Source: Candidatus Omnitrophota bacterium
GTDB taxonomy: Bacteria; Omnitrophota; Gorgyraeia; 2-01-FULL-45-10
Reading direction: 5' to 3'
Assembly: GCA_041661345.1 (NCBI GenBank)
Contig: JBAZUO010000004.1
Span: forward strand, 13,688-77,687
DNA length: 64,000 nucleotides
The notes beneath the pieces were generated by a model. It was given only the letters and a program-made list of their open reading frames with translations. It ran no database searches and was not told where the DNA came from. The translations under genes were made by a program, and so were the position numbers. Of the stretch, positions 3,005 to 48,256 are shown in pieces. The number at the start of each line of letters is the position of its first letter. Position 1 is the first letter of the stretch.

Positions 3005-5418
3005 TTATCAATACCATTTTTCAATTCTATTGCATTCGTTCCGGGCGAAATTCTTACATTCGCAAAACCAGGTAATTGAATATCTATCGGCGGCTCTTTC
3101 GTAAACCAAATTCCTTGCCATTCGACAAGGACATTTTCTTCCTGAGGTTTTATGGAAATTTGAATAATGCCAAATCTTGTCGGCGCGGGCCCAAACGCGA
3201 TCGTTTGTTTTTTACTTAACCAGATTCGCGGTATCCCCGAACATAATATTAATCGGCCGTTTTCTTCACGTACAAAACAATTTCTTATCATCAAAACCCA
3301 TTCCGCCGCGGCCCACACATGCTGCCCGTCCCCCATGCATCCGCCGCCTGTGCGTGGATGCACCGACTCAGGCCATTGTCCCGTTGGTGAAGCCAGTTTA
3401 GCCACCGCTGTCATTAAACCAAAATATCTTGGATCGCCTGCGCGCAAAAGCACCTGGGCTAAATGCAGTGTAAGGTAAGGATTGATCCCAGAATGGGTCA
3501 TATCATGAAAGAATCCGCCATGGATCAAACAATTTTTCATTAAATAATCAACTGTATCTAAAATCCTTGGATCATTCTGTTTAAAAATACGAAGCGGATA
3601 GCCGGCAACCAAAGAGCCAATCGCCCCCGCATCCAAGCGGCGATAAGGAGATGCTGGTATCGCAGGCCTTTTCAAACGAACTTCGACTTTTTTCAAGCTT
3701 TTGTCAATACTCTCCAGTAAAGAATTTGATTCAACTTCAAAATAAAGAGCACGATCATTATCCTTGTAAGCAGTGCATAAAAAAGCTGCTGCTTTTAATC
3801 CCGCTACAGCCCAGAAATCATCCCAATAATAAAAATCATTCGGCCCCAGATGTTCGGCGCTGAATCCCGACGGTAATAAGCCTGCATGAGGAAATCGTAA
3901 ATCGCCGGATAAACGCTTTTTACAGATCCACTTACCGGCTTTACTGATCGATTCTTTCCATTCTTCCGGTGGTACATTTCCCGTCATCTCACAATACTGA
4001 CGCATGATCCACAGGGCCTCACCGTTGGAATCCCACTCCCCTTCTTGAGAGAGGAAATAACCATCAGCTGTCTGACGGGAGCGGAAACAATCTAAGGCTC
4101 GTCGAACGCGCTCGGTTAACCCGGCAGATAACATGGCAGATAATATAAAAGCGGCATCGCGAAACCAAAATCGCCGGTAAATATAAGGACCTGGATAAAC
4201 TTCCTTCGGAGAATGCAAAATCATTGTGTGGATAGCGGCTTCGTAAAGAAATTGAATTTGTTCATCTGGAATTTGCAATATACAGATGCCTTGAAGACTT
4301 TTCTTCCACTCCACCTGAGCAGCCTCTTGAGGGTACCTATAAGATCCTCTTTCAATTTTATTTTTCGTTAAAGGTACCAAAACGGTTATTTCTTGTAATT
4401 CTCCCGTCTCCAATATAAAAACGGCTGCGGAGCTGGCCATACCGACTTTGCATGAAATTTCTTTTTCAAATTCATTCGATGATAAACGGCTATAAACATC
4501 ACCTCGATAATAGTTCGAAAATACGTATTGATCCGGACACTTATCAAAATATATAAAATTTTCCTGATTTACCTTCCAGCCCAACGAATCTTCGAGTAGG
4601 GTAATGCTATTTATAAAGCTCACGCCTTCGGGGTTATAAGGCCTGAGAGAAACGACTAGCCGCGCATTAGTGGAACCAGACCCTGTGATTTTAACCTGGC
4701 AAATAGGTTCTTTGGCTGGACCAATAACTTGCGCTTTCAATTGAAGCTTTAATTGCCCAAGACTTGATTCTGTGATCACGCAAAGATTATCATCGAAAGT
4801 CATCTTTTGCGATACATTTGGCATGCGCGACGGAATTAATGGCTCTCCCTCTTTTGGAATAATCCAGGCGTCAATGGACCACCCATCATAATAGGGCGTA
4901 ACAAGGCCGCGTGGATCTATAATAGGAAATTCGGTGCTGTCAGGAACGCCTAAAGCTGTCCAATTTCTATGGGTGAGATTAATTTGAGTCAGTGAAAAAG
5001 ACCGCGGTATAAACGCCGGATCTTCAGGATCATATTGACATTCTACCCAATAAGGCCAGATCCAATCAAGGTTATGTTGAATGGCTAAGCTATTTATTAA
5101 ACCACGAGCGTGCATGACAGCCCCTGAACGCAACAGCTCCGTCGGAGCTGCCACCTCCGAGGGTTGCGCAAAACTCTGTAATCGAGAAATCAATTTAACA
5201 GGATCTAAAAACCCCTGCCTGCGCGCAGCATCGCTCAATAAAAATTTCCACGGTAACCATTTCCACCATATAAAATAAGCCCGCTCTTTCAACAAGATTC
5301 TAAAAACCCACCACTTAAAGCAGATAAAGGCAAATAAGGCTGTCAACGTTGTAGCGATAATCAACGCTGCAAAAATAGCCCCGGGCCACAAGTTAAGGAT
5401 ACTTTGATTTATTAACAT
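3001..5418 (-). CDS. Membrane-anchored six-hairpin glycosidase-like protein of 805 aa (GH15/GH63/GDE_C-like (alpha/alpha)6 barrel).
   Basis: N-terminal TM helix (AIFAALIIATTLTALFAFICF). The segment YRRFWFRDAAFILSAMLSAGL...EGEWDSNGEALWIMRQY is typical of glucoamylase-like six-hairpin glycosidases. The family assignment is by motif only. Confidence 0.5.
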   Translation of the reverse strand: MLINQSILNLWPGAIFAALIIATTLTALFAFICFKWWVFRILLKERAYFIWWKWLPWKFLLSDAARRQGFLDPVKLISRLQSFAQPSEVAAPTELLRSGAVMHARGLINSLAIQHNLDWIWPYWVECQYDPEDPAFIPRSFSLTQINLTHRNWTALGVPDSTEFPIIDPRGLVTPYYDGWSIDAWIIPKEGEPLIPSRMPNVSQKMTFDDNLCVITESSLGQLKLQLKAQVIGPAKEPICQVKITGSGSTNARLVVSLRPYNPEGVSFINSITLLEDSLGWKVNQENFIYFDKCPDQYVFSNYYRGDVYSRLSSNEFEKEISCKVGMASSAAVFILETGELQEITVLVPLTKNKIERGSYRYPQEAAQVEWKKSLQGICILQIPDEQIQFLYEAAIHTMILHSPKEVYPGPYIYRRFWFRDAAFILSAMLSAGLTERVRRALDCFRSRQTADGYFLSQEGEWDSNGEALWIMRQYCEMTGNVPPEEWKESISKAGKWICKKRLSGDLRFPHAGLLPSGFSAEHLGPNDFYYWDDFWAVAGLKAAAFLCTAYKDNDRALYFEVESNSLLESIDKSLKKVEVRLKRPAIPASPYRRLDAGAIGSLVAGYPLRIFKQNDPRILDTVDYLMKNCLIHGGFFHDMTHSGINPYLTLHLAQVLLRAGDPRYFGLMTAVAKLASPTGQWPESVHPRTGGGCMGDGQHVWAAAEWVLMIRNCFVREENGRLILCSGIPRIWLSKKQTIAFGPAPTRFGIIQISIKPQEENVLVEWQGIWFTKEPPIDIQLPGFANVRISPGTNAIELKNGIDK

Positions 5419-8053: not shown

Positions 8054-8243
8054 TTATGGTAATTTCTTTACCCATTTTTCTAACAATAAGGATACTATCA
8101 GGCTATATAACCTCTAATATGTGTATTTTACTAATCACAAAAAACTTGTCAACAAATTTTAAGACCGCGAAATGGCACTTGTTCAAAATAATAAAATATG
8201 GAAAAAGGAAGAGCTACATTAAATAGAAACTACGCTTCTCTTT

Positions 8244-8338
8244 AAAAACGTTTGGCCGCGAGACCTGCTATAGTCTACATGTTGGCAAGGCGAAGGGCAA
8301 AAGCAGACTACGCTTTTGCCCGAAGCCCGAACGTTGTT
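8244..8338 (-). repeat. tRNA-trailer structured element, copy A. It abuts the CCA of tRNA-Glu.
   Basis: aaacgtttggccgc...gcccgaagcccgaacgtt. Its termini are inverted-complementary, with a G.U-compatible change relative to the other copies. The copy is mosaic: its 5' half matches copy D and its 3' half matches copy E. Confidence 0.6.
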
Positions 8339-8416
8339 TGGTAGCCCCGTGGGGATTTGAACCCCGGTCTTCAGGCTGAGAACCTGACGTCCTAGACCAG
8401 GCTAGACGACGGGGCC
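8339..8416 (-). tRNA. tRNA-Glu, anticodon CUC.
   Basis: Reverse complement gives GGCCCCGTCGTCTAGCCTGGTCTAGGACGTCAGGTTCTCAGCCTGAAGACCGGGGTTCAAATCCCCACGGGGCTACCA. The anticodon loop is TTCTCAG, the T-arm is GGGGTTCAAATCCCC, and the CCA is encoded. Confidence 0.85.
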
Positions 8417-8447
8417 ACCGAAAAAAATTACGCGAACAGAATTTGCT

Positions 8448-8512
8448 CCTTTTCCAATATATTTTGGAAAAGGAATATTAAGGAAAACCTTTTTAGAAAA
8501 GGTTTTCCTTAA
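8448..8512. repeat. Two adjacent perfect hairpins: ccttttccaatatattttggaaaagg, and ttaaggaaaacctttttagaaaaggttttccttaa (the conserved element-associated hairpin).
   Basis: Direct inspection. The second hairpin is homologous to the hairpins at 9526, 47010 and 47981, with compensatory changes. Confidence 0.6.
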
Positions 8513-8629
8513 AACGATTTGGCCGCAAGGCCGCTGTTGCCAGCGTGTCGGCGGGCGAAGGGCGAAAAACAATACAACATTTTTCGGCCCGAAGCCCAAA
8601 TCGCTAAATGGTGCGCGGGACAGGACTTG
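8511..8629 (-). repeat. tRNA-trailer structured element copy B (8511-8608), followed by a 21-nt duplicate of the 3' end of tRNA-Leu (8609-8629).
   Basis: Element: aaaacgatttggccgc...ggcccgaagcccaaatcgctaaa. The segment tggtgcgcgggacaggacttg is identical to 8746-8766, which is the real tRNA-Leu 3' end. Confidence 0.6.
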
Positions 8630-8745
8630 GTCCTTCGGTTCGCAGTGCTCACCTTCGGACCGGCCAATTTGCTGTCGGGCATAGCCCTTTTCTTCCTATT
8701 CGTCAGCGCAAATTGGCTTCAAGTCCATATCCGGACTGACTAAAA

Positions 8746-8830
8746 TGGTGCGCGGGACAGGACTTGAACCTGCAAGGGTTGCCCCAACAGCCCCTCAAAC
8801 TGTCGTGTCTGCCAGTTCCACCACCCGCGC
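8746..8830 (-). tRNA. tRNA-Leu, anticodon GAG, with a long variable arm.
   Basis: Reverse complement gives GCGCGGGTGGTGGAACTGGCAGACACGACAGTTTGAGGGGCTGTTGGGGCAACCCTTGCAGGTTCAAGTCCTGTCCCGCGCACCA. The anticodon stem is ACAGT/GCTGT with loop TTGAGGG. Confidence 0.85.
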
Positions 8831-8840
8831 AAAAATTATC

Positions 8841-9002
8841 TCAATTAGCTTCTCGTAGTTTACGGCGCGCCAACTTCTGCTGTTTCGATAATACCATATC
8901 CGCAAGCTCGTTCATTAATCTAATGCCTTCCAGTTTTTTTTCTGCGGATATTTTAACACCTCTTATAATCTTTTCTTTTCGCGGCTCCCACCCAGAAATC
9001 AT
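8841..9002 (-). CDS. Hypothetical 53-aa basic helical protein, translationally coupled (ATGA overlap) to the upstream nucleotidyltransferase-like gene.
   Basis: Not in the ORF track. Hand translation gives MISGWEPRKEKIIRGVKISAEKKLEGIRLMNELADMVLSKQQKLARRKLREAN. It ends 10 nt before the tRNA-Leu 5' end. Confidence 0.35.
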   Translation of the reverse strand: MISGWEPRKEKIIRGVKISAEKKLEGIRLMNELADMVLSKQQKLARRKLREAN

Positions 9003-9490
9003 ATTACCTTTCTAACTAATTTTAGCTCTTCAATATCTTTTAAATCTTTATCACGCCCTGATGCTCTTTTCATTTTTATAAAATCTTTCGGCGATAAAAT
9101 TATAAGGTTTAGGCCTTTTATTTTAACTTTTAGGGCGTTTTTTATAGCGTTCTTAAAATTAACCGGCGAATCAATAACTATATCAACTTCTTCATAACTT
9201 TTTTCACCCTTGTAAAAATTAAACGCCTTCATATTTTTATTTTCAATCCAATCTTTGCGTGTTTTCGCATCTGCTATCATTGCAGGATCTACCGGTTGTT
9301 TGACATGATACCCGGCCTTCCTCAATATCTTAACTATCTTTCCAAGATTCTCATCCGTCATTTCAACCAGGATGTCCATGTCGAGCGTATTTCTCTGTCC
9401 TCCAAGGAGATTAAATGCCATGCCTCCCACGAGGACATATTTTACCTTCTTGCTCTGAAATTCTTTAAGTATCTCTTCGTACAGTATCAC
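8999..9490 (-). CDS. Minimal nucleotidyltransferase-fold (Pol-beta superfamily, MNT-like) protein.
   Basis: VGGMAFNLLGGQRNTLDMDILV fits the G[GS]-x9-13-D-x-[DE] nucleotidyltransferase motif. The gene lies between tRNA-Leu and tRNA-Gln. Confidence 0.45.
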   Translation of the reverse strand: MILYEEILKEFQSKKVKYVLVGGMAFNLLGGQRNTLDMDILVEMTDENLGKIVKILRKAGYHVKQPVDPAMIADAKTRKDWIENKNMKAFNFYKGEKSYEEVDIVIDSPVNFKNAIKNALKVKIKGLNLIILSPKDFIKMKRASGRDKDLKDIEELKLVRKVI

Positions 9491-9525
9491 ATCAAGCCCT
9501 TAATTATGCTTTTGAAAAAAGAACA

Positions 9526-9654
9526 TTAAGAAAAACCCTTTCATAAAAGGTTTTTCTTAAACAAATTTGGGCGCTAGCCCCACTGGCTATTGCTTTGTCG
9601 GTGGGCCGAAGTCAAAAACCAGACAACAGTTTTTGGCGGAGGCCAAATTTGCAT
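9526..9654 (-). repeat. Conserved hairpin (9526-9560, ttaagaaaaaccctttcataaaaggtttttcttaa) plus tRNA-trailer element copy C (9559-9654), abutting the tRNA-Gln CCA.
   Basis: aaacaaatttgggcgc...ggcggaggccaaatttgcattgg. The terminal stem caaatttgg/ccaaatttg covaries relative to copies B and D (cgatttgg/ccaaatcg). Confidence 0.6.
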
Positions 9655-9728
9655 TGGTTGCCCAGCTAGGATTCGAACCTAGACTAAATGGTTCAGAGCC
9701 ATTCGTGCTACCATTACACCACCGGGCA
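9655..9728 (-). tRNA. tRNA-Gln, anticodon CUG.
   Basis: Reverse complement gives TGCCCGGTGGTGTAATGGTAGCACGAATGGCTCTGAACCATTTAGTCTAGGTTCGAATCCTAGCTGGGCAACCA. It has the U1:A72 pair typical of tRNA-Gln and the anticodon loop CTCTGAA. It sits immediately downstream of glnS. Confidence 0.85.
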
Positions 9729-9778
9729 ATGATCACTCTTACGTTACCCGTAAATCTTATACTAAAACCGGACTTTTT

Positions 9779-11464
9779 TCAACGCTTTCTTTGCTCGAGC
9801 TTCACCCACTCATCTTTCAGCGTCACTGTCCTGTTAAAAATACGCTTCCCGTTTTTTAAAGCTATAGGATCGAGATAAAAATAGCCCAGGCGCTCAAATT
9901 GATAGCGGCTTCCGGGCAAGGCTCCTTTTAGCGACGGCTCAAGCTTGCAGGACGTTAGGATTTCGAGAGATTTCGGATTAAGGTTGGAGCGAAAATCCTT
10001 GCCTTCGAGTGCATCGTCAGGATCGCGCTTAGTGAATAGTAGATCATAGAGCCGGACCTCCGCGTCGATAGCATGGCTTGCCGAAACCCAGTGGAGCGTA
10101 GCCTTCACTTTGCGGCCATCAGAAGCATCTCCTCCCCGCGTAGCAGGATCATATATGCATCGGATCTCGGTAATCTCGCCCGTCTTGGGGTCCTTGATGA
10201 CTTCCGTACATTTCACGAAATACGCATATCTCAGCCTTACTTCTTTCCCTGGAGATAACCGGAAAAATTTTGGCGGGGGAACTTCTCTAAAATCATCCCG
10301 TTCGATATATATCTCCCGGCCAAACGACACTTTGCGGGTTCCGGCGGCCGGGTCTTCTGGATTATTGATGGCGTCGAGCTCTTCCGTTTTACCTTCCGGA
10401 TAATTCGTTATGACAAGTTTAATGGGCCTTAGGACCGCCATTACACGCGGTGCGGTCTTATTCAATTCTTCCCGTATCGCATTTTCGAGCACGGCGATCT
10501 CTATTATGGAATCCATCTTCGAAACGCCGATCCCATCGCAGAATTGGCGGATCGCGTTCGGCGTGTAGCCACGCCGCCTGAAACCGGATATAGTCGGCAT
10601 GCGCGGGTCATCCCATCCGTCTACCGATTTCTCCGTAACAAGCTGAAGCAATTTACGTTTGCTTAAAACCGTATGACTTAAATTAAGCCTCGCAAATTCG
10701 ATCTGCTGCGGATGGTAGGCTTTTAATGTATCAAGTATCCAATCATAGAGCGGACGGTTATTCTCAAATTCAAGCGTACAGATGGAGTGCGTTATCCCTT
10801 CGATAGAATCGGAAATACAGTGCGCAAAATCATACATAGGATAGATGCACCATTTGTCGCCGGTGCGATGATGGTGCTCGCGCTTTATGCGATATAGGAC
10901 AGGGTCGCGCATGATAATATGCGGATCCGCCATATCGATCTTGGCGCGCAAAGTTTTGCTGCCGTCGGGAAACTCGCCCTTCCTCATGCGCGCAAAGAGG
11001 TCGATATTCTCATCGACCGAACGGCCACGATATGGACTATCCTTGCCGGGTTGGGTAAGCGTTCCACGGTATTCCCGCATCTCATCGATATTCAGGTCGC
11101 AGACATACGCTTTGCCTAATTTTATAAGCTGGACGGCACATTCATAAAGCCTTTCGAAATAGTCCGACGCGTAGAAGAGACGATCTCCCCAGTCGAATCC
11201 GAGCCAGCGGACATCTTCGACGATCGAGTCGACATATTCGCTCTCTTCCTTTGCGGGATTCGTATCGTCCATTCGCAGGTTGCACAGGCCTTTGTAATCG
11301 CGGGCGATGCCGAAACTGATACAGATAGCTTTGGCGTGGCCGATATGCAGATAACCGTTCGGCTCGGGCGGAAAACGCGTGTGAACCTTCCCCTTGAACC
11401 TGCCTGTCTTAAGGTGTTCGTCGATTATCTCTCTTATGAAATTTTGATCTTGAGTTTTTTCCAT
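9779..11464 (-). CDS. glnS: Glutaminyl-tRNA synthetase.
   Basis: [42 protein letters not shown] is near-identical to the GlnRS HIGH region. Confidence 0.9.
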
Positions 11465-40889: not shown

Positions 40890-41119
40890 AAAAAATCCCC
40901 GCGAGTGCCGTGTCAAGCTGAATTATCTTGATCCTGTTATTTACAGGTGGGTGCCCTCTTATAGATACCGAGGTATCCGTAAAGTTAGGCTCCCTAGTTT
41001 AGTGCTAATGGCTCAAGATTCTCCATTCGAATCACGCGCACCGCAGGGAATTTATCCTTCTAAAAAAAGTATATCACAAATTCCATGGAATGCAATCCTG
41101 CTTCGCAGGACAGGCTTTC

Positions 41120-45256: not shown

Positions 45257-46972
45257 TTATTTTATCTTTTCGTCGATTTCTTTTTTCAACATCTGCACAA
45301 ACTCTTCTATAGTTTTCTTGCCCATATCGCCCTGAGTCTTCGACCTTACAGACAAGGTCCCTTCGGCAGCTTCTTTCTCGCCCAGCACTATCATGTACGG
45401 GACCTTATCCATCTCGGCGTCCCTTATCTTCTTCTGCAAACGCTCATTACGCGAATCAAGGCTGACCCTGATCTCCAGGGCCGTCAGGATCGACTCTACC
45501 TTCTTCGCGTACTGAAAGGCCTTCTCCGATACCGGTATTATAGCACATTGGGTCGGCGCAAGCCACATGGGCATCGCCCCGGCAAAATGTTCGATGAGGG
45601 CGCCCATGAAGCGTTCGAGCGAGCCCAGTATTACCCTGTGAAGCATTATCGGGCGCTGTTTATTGCCTGTCTCGTCTATATAAGCGAGATCGAATCTCTC
45701 GGGAAGCGCAAAATCGCACTGGATAGTGGCACATTGCCACTCGCGCTTCAATGCGTCCTTCAGTTTAATATCTATCTTCGGCCCGTAGAAGGCGCCGTCG
45801 CCTTCGTTGATCGTGTAATTTAAATATTTTCTCTTCAATGCGCCGACCAGGGCACGCTCGGCCGCGGCCCAATCCGCGTCATTTCCGATCGATTTTTCGG
45901 GACGGGTCGATATCTCGACGGAGAAATCTTCGAATCCGAATACGTTCAATGTATCGATTACGAAATCTATGACCTTTATGATCTCGTCTTCCACCTGGTC
46001 CCTTAAACAGAATATATGCGCATCGTCCTGGGTGAACCCTCTTACGCGCAGGAGCCCGTGGAGAACCCCGGATTTCTCATTTCTGTAGACGGTGCCTAAT
46101 TCAAAATATCTGATCGGAAGGTCACGGTAACTTCTCGTCTTCGATTTATACACGAGAATATGGCCGGGGCAGTTCATAGGTTTTATCGCGTACTCTTGCC
46201 CCTCTATTTTGAATATGTACATGTTCTCTTTGTAATAATCGTAGTGACCCGACGTCATCCATATGTCGCTCTTCATTATGTGGGGGCCCAGAACAAGCTC
46301 ATACCCCCTCTTCAGGTGTTCCTTTCTTATGTAGTTTTCGATTATGCTCCTCAACATCGCCCCTTTCGGGTGATATAAGACAAGCCCCGGCCCAACCTCT
46401 TCGTTGAAGCTGAAATATTCCAGCTGTTTACCGAGCAGCCTGTGATCGCGCCTCTTGGCCTCTTCGATCATGGCGAGATATGCCTTTAAATCTTTTTCGG
46501 TCTCGAACGCGGTCCCATATATTCTCTGAAGCATCGGATTCGTCTCGATGCCGTGCCAATACGCCCCCGCGATCGAAAGAAGTTTGAACGCCTTTATCTT
46601 ACCGGTAGATTCGATATGCGGCCCGCGGCATAGATCCGTAAAATCCCCGTCTTTGTAGATCGTGACCGTATCTTCCGGGATCCTTTCTATCAATTCCAAT
46701 TTATACTTCTCGCCCATATTTTTGAAAAGCCTGATGGCGTCCTCTTTTTTCAGCTCCGTCCTCTCGAAGGTGCAATTCTTTTTTATGATCTCACGCATCT
46801 TAGCTTCGATCTTCTCGAGGTCTTCGGGTGTAAAAGGCTCTTCTTTGTCAAAATCATAATAAAAGCCGTCCTCGATCGATGGGCCTATGCCCAGGCGTAT
46901 CTTTGGCCACAGGCTTTTAACCGCCTGCGCCATCACGTGCGATGTCGAATGTCTTAGTACCGATAAATCCAT
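45257..46972 (-). CDS. thrS: Threonyl-tRNA synthetase (lacks the N-terminal TGS domain).
   Basis: Class II synthetase core; 571 aa. Confidence 0.9.
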   Translation of the reverse strand: MDLSVLRHSTSHVMAQAVKSLWPKIRLGIGPSIEDGFYYDFDKEEPFTPEDLEKIEAKMREIIKKNCTFERTELKKEDAIRLFKNMGEKYKLELIERIPEDTVTIYKDGDFTDLCRGPHIESTGKIKAFKLLSIAGAYWHGIETNPMLQRIYGTAFETEKDLKAYLAMIEEAKRRDHRLLGKQLEYFSFNEEVGPGLVLYHPKGAMLRSIIENYIRKEHLKRGYELVLGPHIMKSDIWMTSGHYDYYKENMYIFKIEGQEYAIKPMNCPGHILVYKSKTRSYRDLPIRYFELGTVYRNEKSGVLHGLLRVRGFTQDDAHIFCLRDQVEDEIIKVIDFVIDTLNVFGFEDFSVEISTRPEKSIGNDADWAAAERALVGALKRKYLNYTINEGDGAFYGPKIDIKLKDALKREWQCATIQCDFALPERFDLAYIDETGNKQRPIMLHRVILGSLERFMGALIEHFAGAMPMWLAPTQCAIIPVSEKAFQYAKKVESILTALEIRVSLDSRNERLQKKIRDAEMDKVPYMIVLGEKEAAEGTLSVRSKTQGDMGKKTIEEFVQMLKKEIDEKIK

Positions 46973-47009
46973 AATCTAACCTTCCTACCTTCCTTAAAGG
47001 AAAGGATCC

Positions 47010-47135
47010 TTGAAGGGAAACCTTGGTTTCCCTTCAAAACGATTTGGTCGCAAGACCTGCTGTTGTTTGACAGCCGACAGGGCGGAGGGCAAAAAACAAC
47101 ACAACATTTTTTGGCCCGAAGCCCAAATCGTTTAG
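47010..47135 (-). repeat. Conserved hairpin (47010-47037, ttgaagggaaaccttggtttcccttcaa) plus tRNA-trailer element copy D (47036-47135), abutting the tRNA-Leu(UAA) CCA.
   Basis: aaaacgatttggtcgcaagacctgctg...ttttttggcccgaagcccaaatcgtttag. The 11-bp terminal complementarity is perfect. Confidence 0.6.
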
Positions 47136-47221
47136 TGGTGGGCAAGGAGGGAGTCGAACCCTCATGGCCTTGCGGCCAGTGACTTTTAAGGCCACCGTGT
47201 ATGCCTTTCCACCACTTGCCC
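47136..47221 (-). tRNA. tRNA-Leu, anticodon UAA, with a long variable arm. Continuous; no intron.
   Basis: Reverse complement gives GGGCAAGTGGTGGAAAGGCATACACGGTGGCCTTAAAAGTCACTGGCCGCAAGGCCATGAGGGTTCGACTCCCTCCTTGCCCACCA. The anticodon stem is GTGGC/GTCAC with loop CTTAAAA. Confidence 0.85.
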
Positions 47222-47231
47222 GAAAATTATT

Positions 47232-47945
47232 TTAAGCACTCACACAACAAACTGTTTTACTTTTGCTCCAGCCTTTATATGAATCAAGACATTGCCGAGC
47301 TAATTTTATTTTCCTATCTAATCCTAAGCAATTTTTGTAATAACACTGTCTAGCAATTTCTTTTGCTGCCATCTTCCCGTATTTTAAAATCCATTGTGTT
47401 TCGGATTCTTTATGAACCCTGCCGCTAACATGTAGAAAGCATTCCGTTACATAATTTAACCATTTTATAAAAACTCCAGATCCTGAATAGATTCGTAAAT
47501 TCCACTGTTCCTTTTTATTAGTAGGGTGAAGCCATCGCCGGATACATCCGTCACCATCGATCAATCCTCTCAAAAAATCAACATAATATCTACGAGAAAC
47601 GTTTAGAGCGCCTATTGTTAACGACTTGTGTGGCCTAAGGCCAATTAACATTAGAAGATTGTAGAAATTCTTGTTACCAATTTGTATGCGACAGGCGCGT
47701 TGTTTTCTTGCGCCATATTTACTGCCTATCTTATTGCCTATCCCGGTTGCCACTTTAATCTTCTCGAGAAAAGCATATTCTTTAGCTGTTATATCAATAT
47801 GTCGTCCGTCCGAAGACAAGCATCCGTCGCTTGTAATCAGTCCAACAAGATACCAAAGATTTGATCCTGTAATGTTTAGATCTTTTCGTTTACGAGGCAT
47901 ATGCTTTCTTGCGTCTGCCAATTCCGCCATCCCGGCCATCCGCAA
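47232..47945 (-). CDS. Free-standing double-motif LAGLIDADG homing endonuclease.
   Basis: Two LAGLIDADG-like motifs: WYLVGLITSDGCLS and VDFLRGLIDGDGCI. The gene ends 10 nt upstream of tRNA-Leu(UAA). TTG or internal ATG start. Confidence 0.7.
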   Translation of the reverse strand: MRMAGMAELADARKHMPRKRKDLNITGSNLWYLVGLITSDGCLSSDGRHIDITAKEYAFLEKIKVATGIGNKIGSKYGARKQRACRIQIGNKNFYNLLMLIGLRPHKSLTIGALNVSRRYYVDFLRGLIDGDGCIRRWLHPTNKKEQWNLRIYSGSGVFIKWLNYVTECFLHVSGRVHKESETQWILKYGKMAAKEIARQCYYKNCLGLDRKIKLARQCLDSYKGWSKSKTVCCVSA

Positions 47946-47980
47946 ATCTTAATCATCCTTCCTTTTAAGGAAGAGATATA

Positions 47981-48102
47981 TTAAAGAGAAACTACGTTTC
48001 TCTTTAAACAAATTTGGGCGCGAGCCCCGTCGTTGCTTTACGCATTGGCGGGCCGAAGCCAAAAAGCAGACTACACTTTTTGGCGGAGGCCAAATTTGTG
48101 TA
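47981..48102 (-). repeat. Conserved hairpin (47981-48007, ttaaagagaaactacgtttctctttaa) plus tRNA-trailer element copy E (48007-48102), abutting the tRNA-Val CCA.
   Basis: aaacaaatttgggcgcgagcccc...ggcgggccgaagcc...ttttggcggaggccaaatttgtgta. In minus-strand sense it contains a GGCUUCGGCC tetraloop hairpin. Confidence 0.6.
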
Positions 48103-48179
48103 TGGTGGACGCGACAGGACTCGAACCTGTGACCCCTACCATGTCAAGGTAGTGCTCTAACCAACTGAGCTACGCGTCC
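48103..48179 (-). tRNA. tRNA-Val, anticodon GAC.
   Basis: Reverse complement gives GGACGCGTAGCTCAGTTGGTTAGAGCACTACCTTGACATGGTAGGGGTCACAGGTTCGAGTCCTGTCGCGTCCACCA. Confidence 0.85.
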
Positions 48180-48181
48180 CT

Positions 48182-48256
48182 TGGAAGCGTGGGCGAGAAT
48201 TGAACTCGCGTATAGGAGTTTTGCAGACTCCTGCCTTACCGCTTGGCTACCACGCC
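48182..48256 (-). tRNA. tRNA-Cys, anticodon GCA.
   Basis: Reverse complement gives GGCGTGGTAGCCAAGCGGTAAGGCAGGAGTCTGCAAAACTCCTATACGCGAGTTCAATTCTCGCCCACGCTTCCA. A 2-nt spacer separates it from tRNA-Val. Confidence 0.85.

Follow-up and report, generated by a model that had tools for sequence, protein, structure and literature searches.

A module family of four-way junction and terminal hairpin located at the 3' ends of tRNA genes in Candidatus Omnitrophota

In a 64,000-nt stretch of DNA (contig JBAZUO010000004.1; hereafter the window) from a metagenome-assembled genome (MAG) of Candidatus Omnitrophota, in which the minus strand carries nearly all genes up to about 56 kb, an initial annotation pointed to five structured elements behind tRNA genes. 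We report here that these five elements are copies of a previously undescribed module family, spread across Candidatus Omnitrophota, and that its strict link to tRNA 3' ends holds phylum-wide. The module is composed of a four-way junction, an AU-rich hairpin of 12-17 bp (HP1), and a U/C-rich tail. A second structured family, designated X, is likewise undescribed, and neither of the two has a match in Rfam.

By use of ARAGORN, six tRNA genes were detected in the window, all on the minus strand and in agreement with the Rfam tRNA model. The tRNA-Cys(GCA) and tRNA-Val(GAC) genes form a pair with a spacer of 2 nt (48103-48256), and the six tRNAs make up five units, each closed by one module copy (A to E; Table 1). 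The copies are about 125-135 nt in length, start 0-4 nt past a CCA end, and are all oriented in tRNA sense. A covariance model was built from these five copies; it scored the five at 113-131 bits and the rest of the 64 kb never above 25 bits, confirming five tRNA-sense copies behind tRNA 3' ends. The mean column identity of their MAFFT alignment was 72%. The claim that every tRNA gene or tRNA pair is trailed by an element stood for the five units, but not in the sense of direct contact throughout. Copies A, C, D, and E begin 0-1 nt beyond the CCA of an intact tRNA, whereas copy B starts right past the CCA of an exact 21-nt duplicate of the tRNA-Leu(GAG) 3' end, which a 116-nt insert of family X parts from the real tRNA. 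The model scan of the window gave no further copies, including the region after the 6S RNA (40892-41052, minus strand; Rfam RF00013, 80 bits). As this 6S RNA is not followed by a junction element, the module is specific to tRNAs and not to stable RNAs in general.

Orthologous loci were obtained through homologues of threonyl-tRNA synthetase (ThrRS), and a degenerate pattern was scanned against GTDB representative genomes, JGI metagenomes, and viral contigs (related loci are given L-numbers). The pattern detected 24 loci in the GTDB representative genomes, almost all of them Omnitrophota MAGs, and 66 loci in the JGI metagenomes; matches in viral contigs were zero. Over these loci the covariance model yielded 105 matches, 95 of them distinct, with scores of 48-131 bits on about 90 Omnitrophota contigs, indicating that the family is not restricted to the locus where it was noticed. 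For as many as 65 of these 95, no more than 3 nt separate the start from the 3' end of an intact ARAGORN-predicted tRNA on the same strand, and these tRNAs span 28 anticodon classes. Most of the remaining 30 copies lie behind a tRNA 3' fragment that ends in CCA or at a contig edge, and true exceptions to tRNA adjacency number about six. In Omnitrophica RBG_13_46_9 (L028; 4140-4347, minus strand), the tRNA-Val gene carries CGC instead of an encoded CCA, and the element starts 6 nt past the discriminator base; the spacing thus holds with respect to the tRNA body.

The four-way junction was recovered by RNAalifold, in agreement with single-sequence folds. The closing stem P1 is 8-11 bp long and is formed in most copies by AAACGAUUUGG and CCAAAUCGUUU. 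The long arm consists, in this order, of P2 (4 bp), a conserved 3x3 internal loop (U-N-C opposite U-Y-C), P2b, and P3. P3 contains an A:U tract that does not vary among 94 of 94 copies, and is capped by a semi-conserved loop of about 11 nt, L3, that varies by lineage but is similar within lineages. P5/J is short, variable, and A/C-rich, with GCC/GGC as its closure and an A-rich unpaired J/P5 region. P4, a 4-bp stem (GGNC/GNCC) with a UNGC loop, stacks directly on P1. Conserved unpaired positions are confined to the 3x3 loop and the P4 loop, and the junction is almost fully paired. The terminal complementarity and compensatory changes described earlier thus proved real in both alignment and fold. 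The C(UUCG)G tetraloop hairpins, which had also been taken as an argument for the RNA strand, did not: the GGCUUCGGCC-type strings belong to the long arm as the 3' strand of P2b, the 3x3 loop, and P2. The matching segment of copies B and D, GCCCTTCGCCC, is unable to form a local hairpin, and the covariation of P2/P2b contradicts the tetraloop reading.

In the alignment of the 95 distinct copies, canonical pairs fill 94.7% of 3543 pair cells, and changes on both sides were observed for 26 of the 38 pairs (432 cells). None of 500 shuffled alignments reached any covariation measure of the real one, and the canonical fraction was 34-63% when the pairing partners were slid by 1-3 columns. Identity among the window copies is only 55-71%, but the fold is kept in all, indicating that they are old and arguing against inert transposon relics. 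Their nearest relatives sit in other genomes, either at the same tRNA (Gln, 77% identity; Leu-TAA, 85%) or at a different one (Leu duplicate versus Ala, 84%; Val versus Met, 77%). Between copy D and its probable orthologue in L017, paired substitutions were found in P4 (U-A to C-G) and in HP1 (G-C to A-U). The canonical pairing, the double changes, and the maintenance of the fold at low identity altogether support the earlier view that selection acts on base pairing, in place of decay of miniature inverted-repeat transposable element (MITE) copies.

The tail after HP1 follows the consensus U(G/A)UUCCYCUUYC. Its pyrimidine content is 84% in tRNA sense versus 43% in antisense, its T content 46% versus 27%, and 8 bases with five or more T were observed for 37 of 84 copies in sense versus 1 of 84 in antisense. 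In a lenient terminator scan, the hairpins of copies B, C, and E were flagged as terminator-like on the tRNA strand. The hairpins had been described as perfect, lacking a U-run, and not canonical terminators. Perfect stems were found in four of the five copies, but that of copy A includes one mismatch and one G-U pair, and the tail, although not a canonical U-run, is conserved and rich in pyrimidine and T. Considering this tail and the three flagged hairpins, we regard HP1 plus tail as probably a weak terminator. A promoter-like site (TTGAAA-17-TAAGAT, 9782-9754) is located upstream of tRNA-Gln, and another for the next operon (TTGACA-16-TAAAAT, 8152-8125, 11/12 match) just downstream of the copy A hairpin. 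This bracketing suggests putative units of promoter, tRNA, junction, and hairpin. No sigma-70 promoter was found inside the element or on its antisense strand.

In each subtype the tail is also a repeat of the core found in the 3' arm of HP1 (for example, TTCCCCTTAA-TA-TTCCCCTTCC), in the window (8205-8219, 8448-8477, 46973-47009, and 47946-47980) and in about 90 related copies; this likeness could be mere shared ancestry. The GGAAGG that comes next, which serves the ThrRS and LAGLIDADG genes as Shine-Dalgarno sequence, often pairs with the tail, and this may allow alternative pairing or translational coupling. The hairpins of copy E (47981-48007) and of copy F in the close relative L001 (9084-9110) have identical stems and loops that are reverse complements (GTA/TAC); the hairpin has thus been flipped, the palindrome being inverted at the DNA level.

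We tentatively favour, with somewhat less than even confidence, the reading that the module is transcribed along with the tRNA as a cassette of 3' trailer and terminator, which has passed by copying from one tRNA locus to another over long times. Co-transcription is suggested by the orientation, the spacing, the sense-specific pyrimidine tail, and the bracketing promoter-like sites. The module would be transcribed together with the tRNA as its 3' trailer, and the hairpin and pyrimidine tail would end or attenuate the transcript. Being self-contained, the junction would prevent base pairing of the trailer to the tRNA or to RNA further downstream, and would block 3' exonucleases, so that the tRNA would be freed by an endonucleolytic cut just past CCA, leaving a stable by-product RNA of about 130 nt. 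The cassette would be copied among tRNA loci over evolutionary time, spreading slowly, and would be one of several post-CCA families, together with X and with Y and Z described below, accreting at Omnitrophota tRNA 3' ends. Transcription, termination, cleavage, host benefit, and the copying mechanism are what we infer from the sequences.

Several observations weigh against the trailer reading. The tail is not a canonical U-run, and the ThrRS start codon is located about 40 nt past the copy D hairpin, so that termination there must be partial, with some read-through. Nearly all helical pairs are Watson-Crick, G-U does not exceed A-C in frequency, and where a pair toggles from G-C to A-U or back, G-U intermediates are few or lacking. 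Such scarcity of wobble is unusual for a classical RNA and fits selection on DNA, or on both strands, better; it is the main point in that direction. Read in antisense, P4 is capped by a GNRA-like GCNA loop, and the internal loop becomes GRA/GNA, resembling tandem G-A. The element is absent from the orthologous slot between tRNA-Leu(TAA) and thrS in L002-L004 (ThrRS 83-84% identical), and therefore it is not essential.

Assignment of the strand by wobble pairs gave no verdict: the well-aligned helices contain 12 G-U versus 8 A-C in about 1010 cells, several of them alignment slips, and folding-based counts were confounded by refolding. The minimum free energy of the whole element was about equal on both strands, being lower on the antisense in 19 of 33 copies, and the G-U excess of antisense P5 follows from the sense strand being rich in A and C. 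The tail after HP1 is the sole clearly strand-asymmetric signal, and the tRNA strand is therefore favoured.

The family X, about 95-150 nt in length, is located between an intact tRNA and an exact duplicate of its last 21 nt or so. Its closing helix is formed between the 5' arm (GGAYTYG) and the T-loop/T-stem part of the duplicate, and its core, a three-way junction, has conserved loops that are rich in G and A (CGCCGAnnnnnGGAGGAAAAGG, GACAG, and CGAAG). In the X alignment (A6), 23 of 34 pairs have double changes, and the 5' arm covaries with tRNA identity. Unlike X, P1 of the junction module does not covary with tRNA identity, and its role as a T-loop complement tracking the upstream tRNA was rejected. 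X was also found in tandem arrays of X plus duplicate. In every case the duplicate begins at T-loop position 56/57 and is a match to the tRNA of its own locus, across at least 10 tRNA species (among them Leu, Glu, Gln, Val, Gly, Arg, Met, and His). Because the duplicates are locally matched, a target-copying mechanism fits, and a fixed attachment sequence borne by the element explains them poorly.

A third insert family, Y (GGGATTnnTTCGCAGACG-hairpin-CTATGAGTTATGTCG...CCATAACTCATCTGCTCAnnAAAAATCC), has a duplicate of the local tRNA 3' end as its terminus. Z, the fourth of the post-CCA families, is a hairpin (GTTTTGCC...GGCAAAAC) with TGTCCCG... behind it; in L001 it comes after the CCA of both tRNA-Cys and tRNA-Val, where the window has the 2-nt spacer or copy E. 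The motif CGACGAATAGGAGG is common to Z and X. In L004, further repeated trailers begin at CCA (TTCTGCTACGCCCGT...).

Table 1. Location of tRNA genes, module copies with their parts, and the X, Y, and Z families
Feature	Locus	Position	Strand	Evidence	Remarks
tRNA-Glu(CTC)	window	8339-8416	minus	ARAGORN, Rfam tRNA	encoded CCA; upstream partner of copy A
tRNA-Leu(GAG)	window	8746-8830	minus	ARAGORN, Rfam	
tRNA-Gln(CTG)	window	9655-9728	minus	ARAGORN	
tRNA-Leu(TAA)	window	47136-47221	minus	ARAGORN	allele unlike that of close relative L001
tRNA-Val(GAC)	window	48103-48179	minus	ARAGORN	
tRNA-Cys(GCA)	window	48182-48256	minus	ARAGORN	
Copy A	window	8215-8338	minus	covariance model match 8215-8339, 118 bits	after tRNA-Glu
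Copy A, four-way-junction body	window	8245-8338	minus	alignment and fold	P1, P2-3x3 loop-P2b-P3 arm, P5/J, P4
Copy A, HP1	window	8220-8244	minus		10 bp with one mismatch and one G-U
Copy A, pyrimidine-rich tail	window	8205-8219	minus		
Copy B	window	8474-8608	minus	covariance model match, 119 bits	after CCA of 21-nt duplicate
Copy B, four-way-junction body	window	8513-8608	minus	covariance model and fold	
Copy B, HP1	window	8478-8512	minus	flagged terminator-like on minus strand	16 bp, perfect; tail TATTCCTTTT
Copy B, second hairpin HP2	window	8448-8472	minus		
tRNA-Leu(GAG) 3'-end duplicate	window	8609-8629	minus	repeat search	T-loop C56 to CCA76, 21 nt exact
X	window	8630-8745	minus		linker 8727-8745; 5' arm GGACTTG from 8726; GA-rich three-way-junction core
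Copy C	window	9522-9654	minus	covariance model match 9522-9655, 118 bits	after tRNA-Gln
Copy C, four-way-junction body	window	9561-9654	minus	covariance model	
Copy C, HP1	window	9526-9560	minus		16 bp; tail TGTTCTTTTT
Copy D	window	47007-47135	minus	covariance model, 113-115 bits	after tRNA-Leu(TAA)
Copy D, four-way-junction body	window	47038-47135	minus	covariance model	
Copy D, HP1	window	47010-47037	minus		13 bp; tail and Shine-Dalgarno-like region lead into ThrRS start at 46972
Copy E	window	47977-48102	minus	covariance model match, 131 bits	after tRNA-Cys/Val pair
Copy E, four-way-junction body	window	48008-48102	minus	covariance model	
Copy E, HP1	window	47981-48007	minus		12 bp, perfect; tail TATATCTCTT
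X	L013	6632-6770			
X	L019	6695-6807			
X	L040	93-209			
X	L054	2175-2294			
X	L084	2939-3056; 3191-3312			
X, three copies	L090	~5247-5366	minus		after tRNA-Glu; a second ~33-200 nt downstream of junction copy 5111-5246; one further downstream
Y	L067	~1921-2180	minus		
Y	L072	~1720-1880	plus		
Y	L090	~4700-4800	minus		
Z	L001	8664-8740; 8820-8897			
Z	L090	~4870-4910	minus		just downstream of second tRNA-Glu duplicate

The main alternative is that the module is a selfish non-autonomous mobile element, resembling MITEs, palindrome-associated transposable elements (PATEs), or cis-mobilizable elements (CIMEs), which inserts strand-specifically at tRNA 3' ends and is moved in trans by an integrase, an HUH/Y1 transposase, or a reverse transcriptase. 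The fold would then represent a single-stranded DNA or RNA form recognised by the enzyme, or would keep the insertion harmless to tRNA maturation. We consider this possible, though on the whole unlikely. The precise junction behind 28 anticodon classes needs spread. L001, a close relative of the window (ThrRS 94% identical), carries a single copy, F, between tRNA-Leu(TAA) and thrS, the slot that is empty in L002-L004, and such patchy presence among close relatives indicates that the module moves. In this same slot, copy D of the window and copy F of L001 are of different subtypes (about 60% identical) within conserved flanks, including the downstream ribosome-binding region, and copy E is missing from L001, which has the 77-nt repeat Z instead. 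Some of the nearest relatives, as noted above for the Leu duplicate and Val copies, are located at other tRNAs. Arrays in the order of tRNA, junction-hairpin, X or Y, and duplicate of the last 21 nt or so of the tRNA were found in at least 8 cases, and arrays of tRNA, X, duplicate, and junction in at least 14; the array of L090 runs tRNA-Glu, X, duplicate, junction, X, duplicate, Z-like...Y. Bounded by exact tRNA 3'-end duplicates, these arrays resemble repeated insertions. The near-pure Watson-Crick helices without G-U excess and the presence of a Y1 transposase gene in L001 also fit mobility.

Against mobility, no direct repeat that could be a target-site duplication flanks the junction-plus-hairpin unit; a downstream tRNA-end duplicate was found for only 8 of 90 copies, always past an X or Y insert. 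The P1 ends pair but covary, one pair being CG in 49, AU in 35, GC in 4, and UA in 4, and are not conserved as transposase-binding terminal inverted repeats would be. The 3' boundary of the unit is formed by hairpin and tail, with no inverted copy of the 5' end. In the window and the related loci (610 kb), no transposase, integrase, or reverse transcriptase gene was found next to any copy and none recurs, the Y1 gene of L001 having no copies beside it; no full-length cognate with a transposase was detected, all model matches being about 125-190 nt; and barring the six or so exceptions there are no copies away from tRNA ends. Old as the copies of one genome are, none has lost the fold, which is unexpected for inactive relics. 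The initial verdict against decaying MITE copies therefore holds as far as the fold is kept under selection, but mobility is to be taken seriously, given the absence from L002-L004, the subtype swap, and the arrays. The trailer and selfish-element readings are not exclusive, since a parasite of tRNA genes would be selected for compatibility with tRNA maturation.

Two neighbouring genes were considered as the element's own gene and rejected. A free-standing LAGLIDADG homing-endonuclease gene (Pfam PF14528; 47232-47945, minus strand) occurs only in the window and is not recurrent. Before it lies a 29-nt fragment (47908-47936, minus strand) identical to nt 1-29 of L001 tRNA-Leu(TAA), and after it a complete tRNA-Leu(TAA) that differs in sequence. 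It appears that the endonuclease gene, together with a replacement tRNA, was written over the 3' part of the resident tRNA gene from a break in the anticodon stem. A DUF6036-type nucleotidyltransferase gene (8999-9490, minus strand), with a small ORF upstream, is located between copy C and tRNA-Leu(GAG), and is merely an orthologous neighbour: a homologue of 60% identity is located downstream of tRNA-Gln and its element in L056. It is probably toxin-antitoxin-like cargo in the tRNA cluster. Further along the window, at about 55.5-56.7 kb, the GC skew changes sign and the gene orientation flips, near rnpA-yidD-yidC-parA-parB synteny (with dnaA adjacent in L004), which suggests the chromosomal replication origin.

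No described family was found to match the module. In an Rfam 15 scan of the window at gathering thresholds, which took in the hammerhead, HDV, hatchet, pistol, twister, twister-sister, tRNA-like, and small RNA families, only the tRNAs and the 6S RNA passed; at E <= 10, nothing covered the junction within 8150-9800, the AU-rich hairpin alone giving spurious microRNA and plastid matches, and the trailers of L001 and L004 gave no family. Literature searches gave no description of the element, and tRNA is never mentioned in a 2024 review of prokaryotic MITEs (PMC10969869). Repetitive extragenic palindromes (REP) and bacterial interspersed mosaic elements (BIME) with their REP-associated tyrosine transposases (RAYTs) were rejected by the single orientation of the module to tRNA and by its four-way junction, in place of a palindrome of 20-40 nt. 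An integrase-type integrative element was rejected because copies A, C, D, and E have no downstream tRNA-end (attR-like) repeat within 700 nt and no adjacent integrase; tRNA-end repeats bound X, Y, and composite arrays, all 54-330 nt and non-coding. For integron attC sites, the P1 strands AAACGATTTGG and CCAAATCGTTTT misfit the R''/R' boxes (RYYYAAC...GTTRRRY) on both strands, and a cassette context is lacking.

Some structured repeats, among them SPRITE, bear terminator-like hairpins (PMC10969869). Like the module, SPRITE, BOX, RUP (Streptococcus pneumoniae), REP/BIME, ERIC, and Correia elements are multi-copy, non-coding, stably folded, and transcribed intergenic sequences of about 100-150 nt, and different elements often cluster and nest as in the module arrays. 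Unlike the module, they are scattered in both orientations and are mostly simple or imperfect hairpins, several having known mobilising enzymes (RAYTs, insertion sequence (IS) transposases) and target-site duplications, whereas the module occurs almost only at +1 to +4 past a tRNA 3' end, always in tRNA sense, and without a duplication of its own.

With respect to position, a parallel is offered by the tRNA 3' external transcribed spacer RNAs, such as 3'ETS-leuZ of Escherichia coli, and by other trailer-derived small RNAs, which are located, like the module, between a tRNA 3' end and the operon terminator and are freed by tRNA processing; unlike the module, 3'ETS-leuZ is a single-locus sponge with a short complementary seed, and not a paralogous four-way-junction family behind dozens of tRNAs. 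Structured RNAs are co-transcribed beside a tRNA or tRNA-like unit in the plant dicistronic tRNA-small nucleolar RNA genes, the tRNA-microRNA genes of murid herpesvirus 68, MALAT1-mascRNA, and RNA species 1 and 2 of the phage T4 tRNA cluster, and cleavage of RNase P or RNase Z type at the tRNA boundary separates the products. Unlike the module, these are eukaryotic, viral, or phage systems, in which the tRNA supplies the promoter or processing signal for a product of known class; we know of no bacterial chromosomal family of this kind. At the attachment (att) sites of tyrosine integrases and in CIMEs, foreign sequence begins at the tRNA end and arrays are parted by direct repeats of the tRNA 3' end, in the same way as tRNA-end repeats part X, Y, and junction-plus-X composites here. 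The segments here, however, are 54-330 nt long without an integrase, the duplicate matches the local tRNA, the X arm complements the duplicated T-loop, and most junction copies lack a right-hand duplicate. The palindrome-associated elements derived from IS200/IS605 and the guide scaffolds of TnpB/IscB are strand-specific and highly structured, are about 100-200 nt in length, and abut a defined flank; the module differs in that no TnpA, TnpB, or IscB gene is adjacent, its two hairpins are unrelated in sequence, and neither a conserved transposon-adjacent motif nor an antisense promoter was found. The element thus fails the defining tests of each known family testable here.

A more speculative reading, which we judge improbable, is that the junction, X, Y, and Z may constitute a new RNA-level class of tRNA-gene parasite or symbiont, its module RNAs being joined to or primed from tRNA 3' ends. 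It is suggested by the modules beginning at CCA, by the regeneration of the last 21 nt or so by X and Y, and by the covariation of the X arm with the tRNA. Joining might, with no greater likelihood, take place by ligation, by transesterification of ribozyme type at T-loop position 55/56, or by a reverse transcriptase that switches templates, each followed by copy-back into the genome. The reverse transcriptase of Neurospora retroplasmids switches templates onto CCA ends. The four-way junction might then, again as an improbable proposal, make the insertion compatible with tRNA maturation.

That the released RNA of about 130 nt acts in trans as a structural or protein-binding small RNA, with the tRNA serving only as a handle for transcription and processing as in the plant, murid herpesvirus 68, and phage T4 cases above, is very doubtful. 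A structured body with a terminator-like 3' hairpin is typical of stable bacterial small RNAs, and the P3 A:U tract, 3x3 loop, P4 loop, and L3 could form a protein-binding platform, next to the A-rich unpaired J/P5 region. The many paralogues per genome, however, carry no conserved single-stranded seed, the module is dispensable in close relatives, and no partner protein or target was found for it.

A functional antisense strand, in which hairpin and junction would precede the antisense tRNA 3' end as scaffold and guide in the manner of TnpB/IscB omega-RNA, is highly improbable. The antisense loops and free energies given above would fit it, as would a scaffold adjoining conserved host sequence in fixed orientation; but there is neither an adjacent nuclease or transposase gene nor an antisense promoter-like site, the extra G-U pairs of P5 follow from sense-strand composition, and the one clear asymmetry, the pyrimidine tail, lies on the sense strand. 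That the module cleaves itself at its 5' edge, in the way of the hepatitis delta virus (HDV)-like and hatchet ribozymes, and so makes the tRNA 3' end is scarcely credible: the start fixed at 0-4 nt past CCA and the compact multi-helix fold would suit it, and ribozymes cleaving at the 5' end leave upstream sequence unconstrained, but no Rfam ribozyme model matched even at E <= 10, very few unpaired nucleotides are conserved in the almost fully paired junction, the variable post-CCA linker finds no complementary partner for an HDV-like P1, and the L3-J pseudoknot seen by eye in A (TAGTCT/AGACTA) and in B and D (TGTTG/CAACA) has no such run in E.

Omnitrophota are poorly known, ultra-small, and often host-dependent bacteria. 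If the module functions as RNA, as in the trailer reading, it would be a large, phylum-wide, strongly covarying non-coding family missing from Rfam and tied to the making of tRNA 3' ends, which is an essential step, and would offer a direct handle on termination and processing of tRNA transcripts in this phylum. If it is mobile, it would be the first prokaryotic miniature element known to us with near-absolute specificity for the nucleotide past CCA. The exact local 21-nt duplications, and with them the arm of X that is matched to the tRNA, suggest a target-copying mechanism. In either case, the tRNA 3' ends of Omnitrophota emerge as organised accretion sites for small structured modules.

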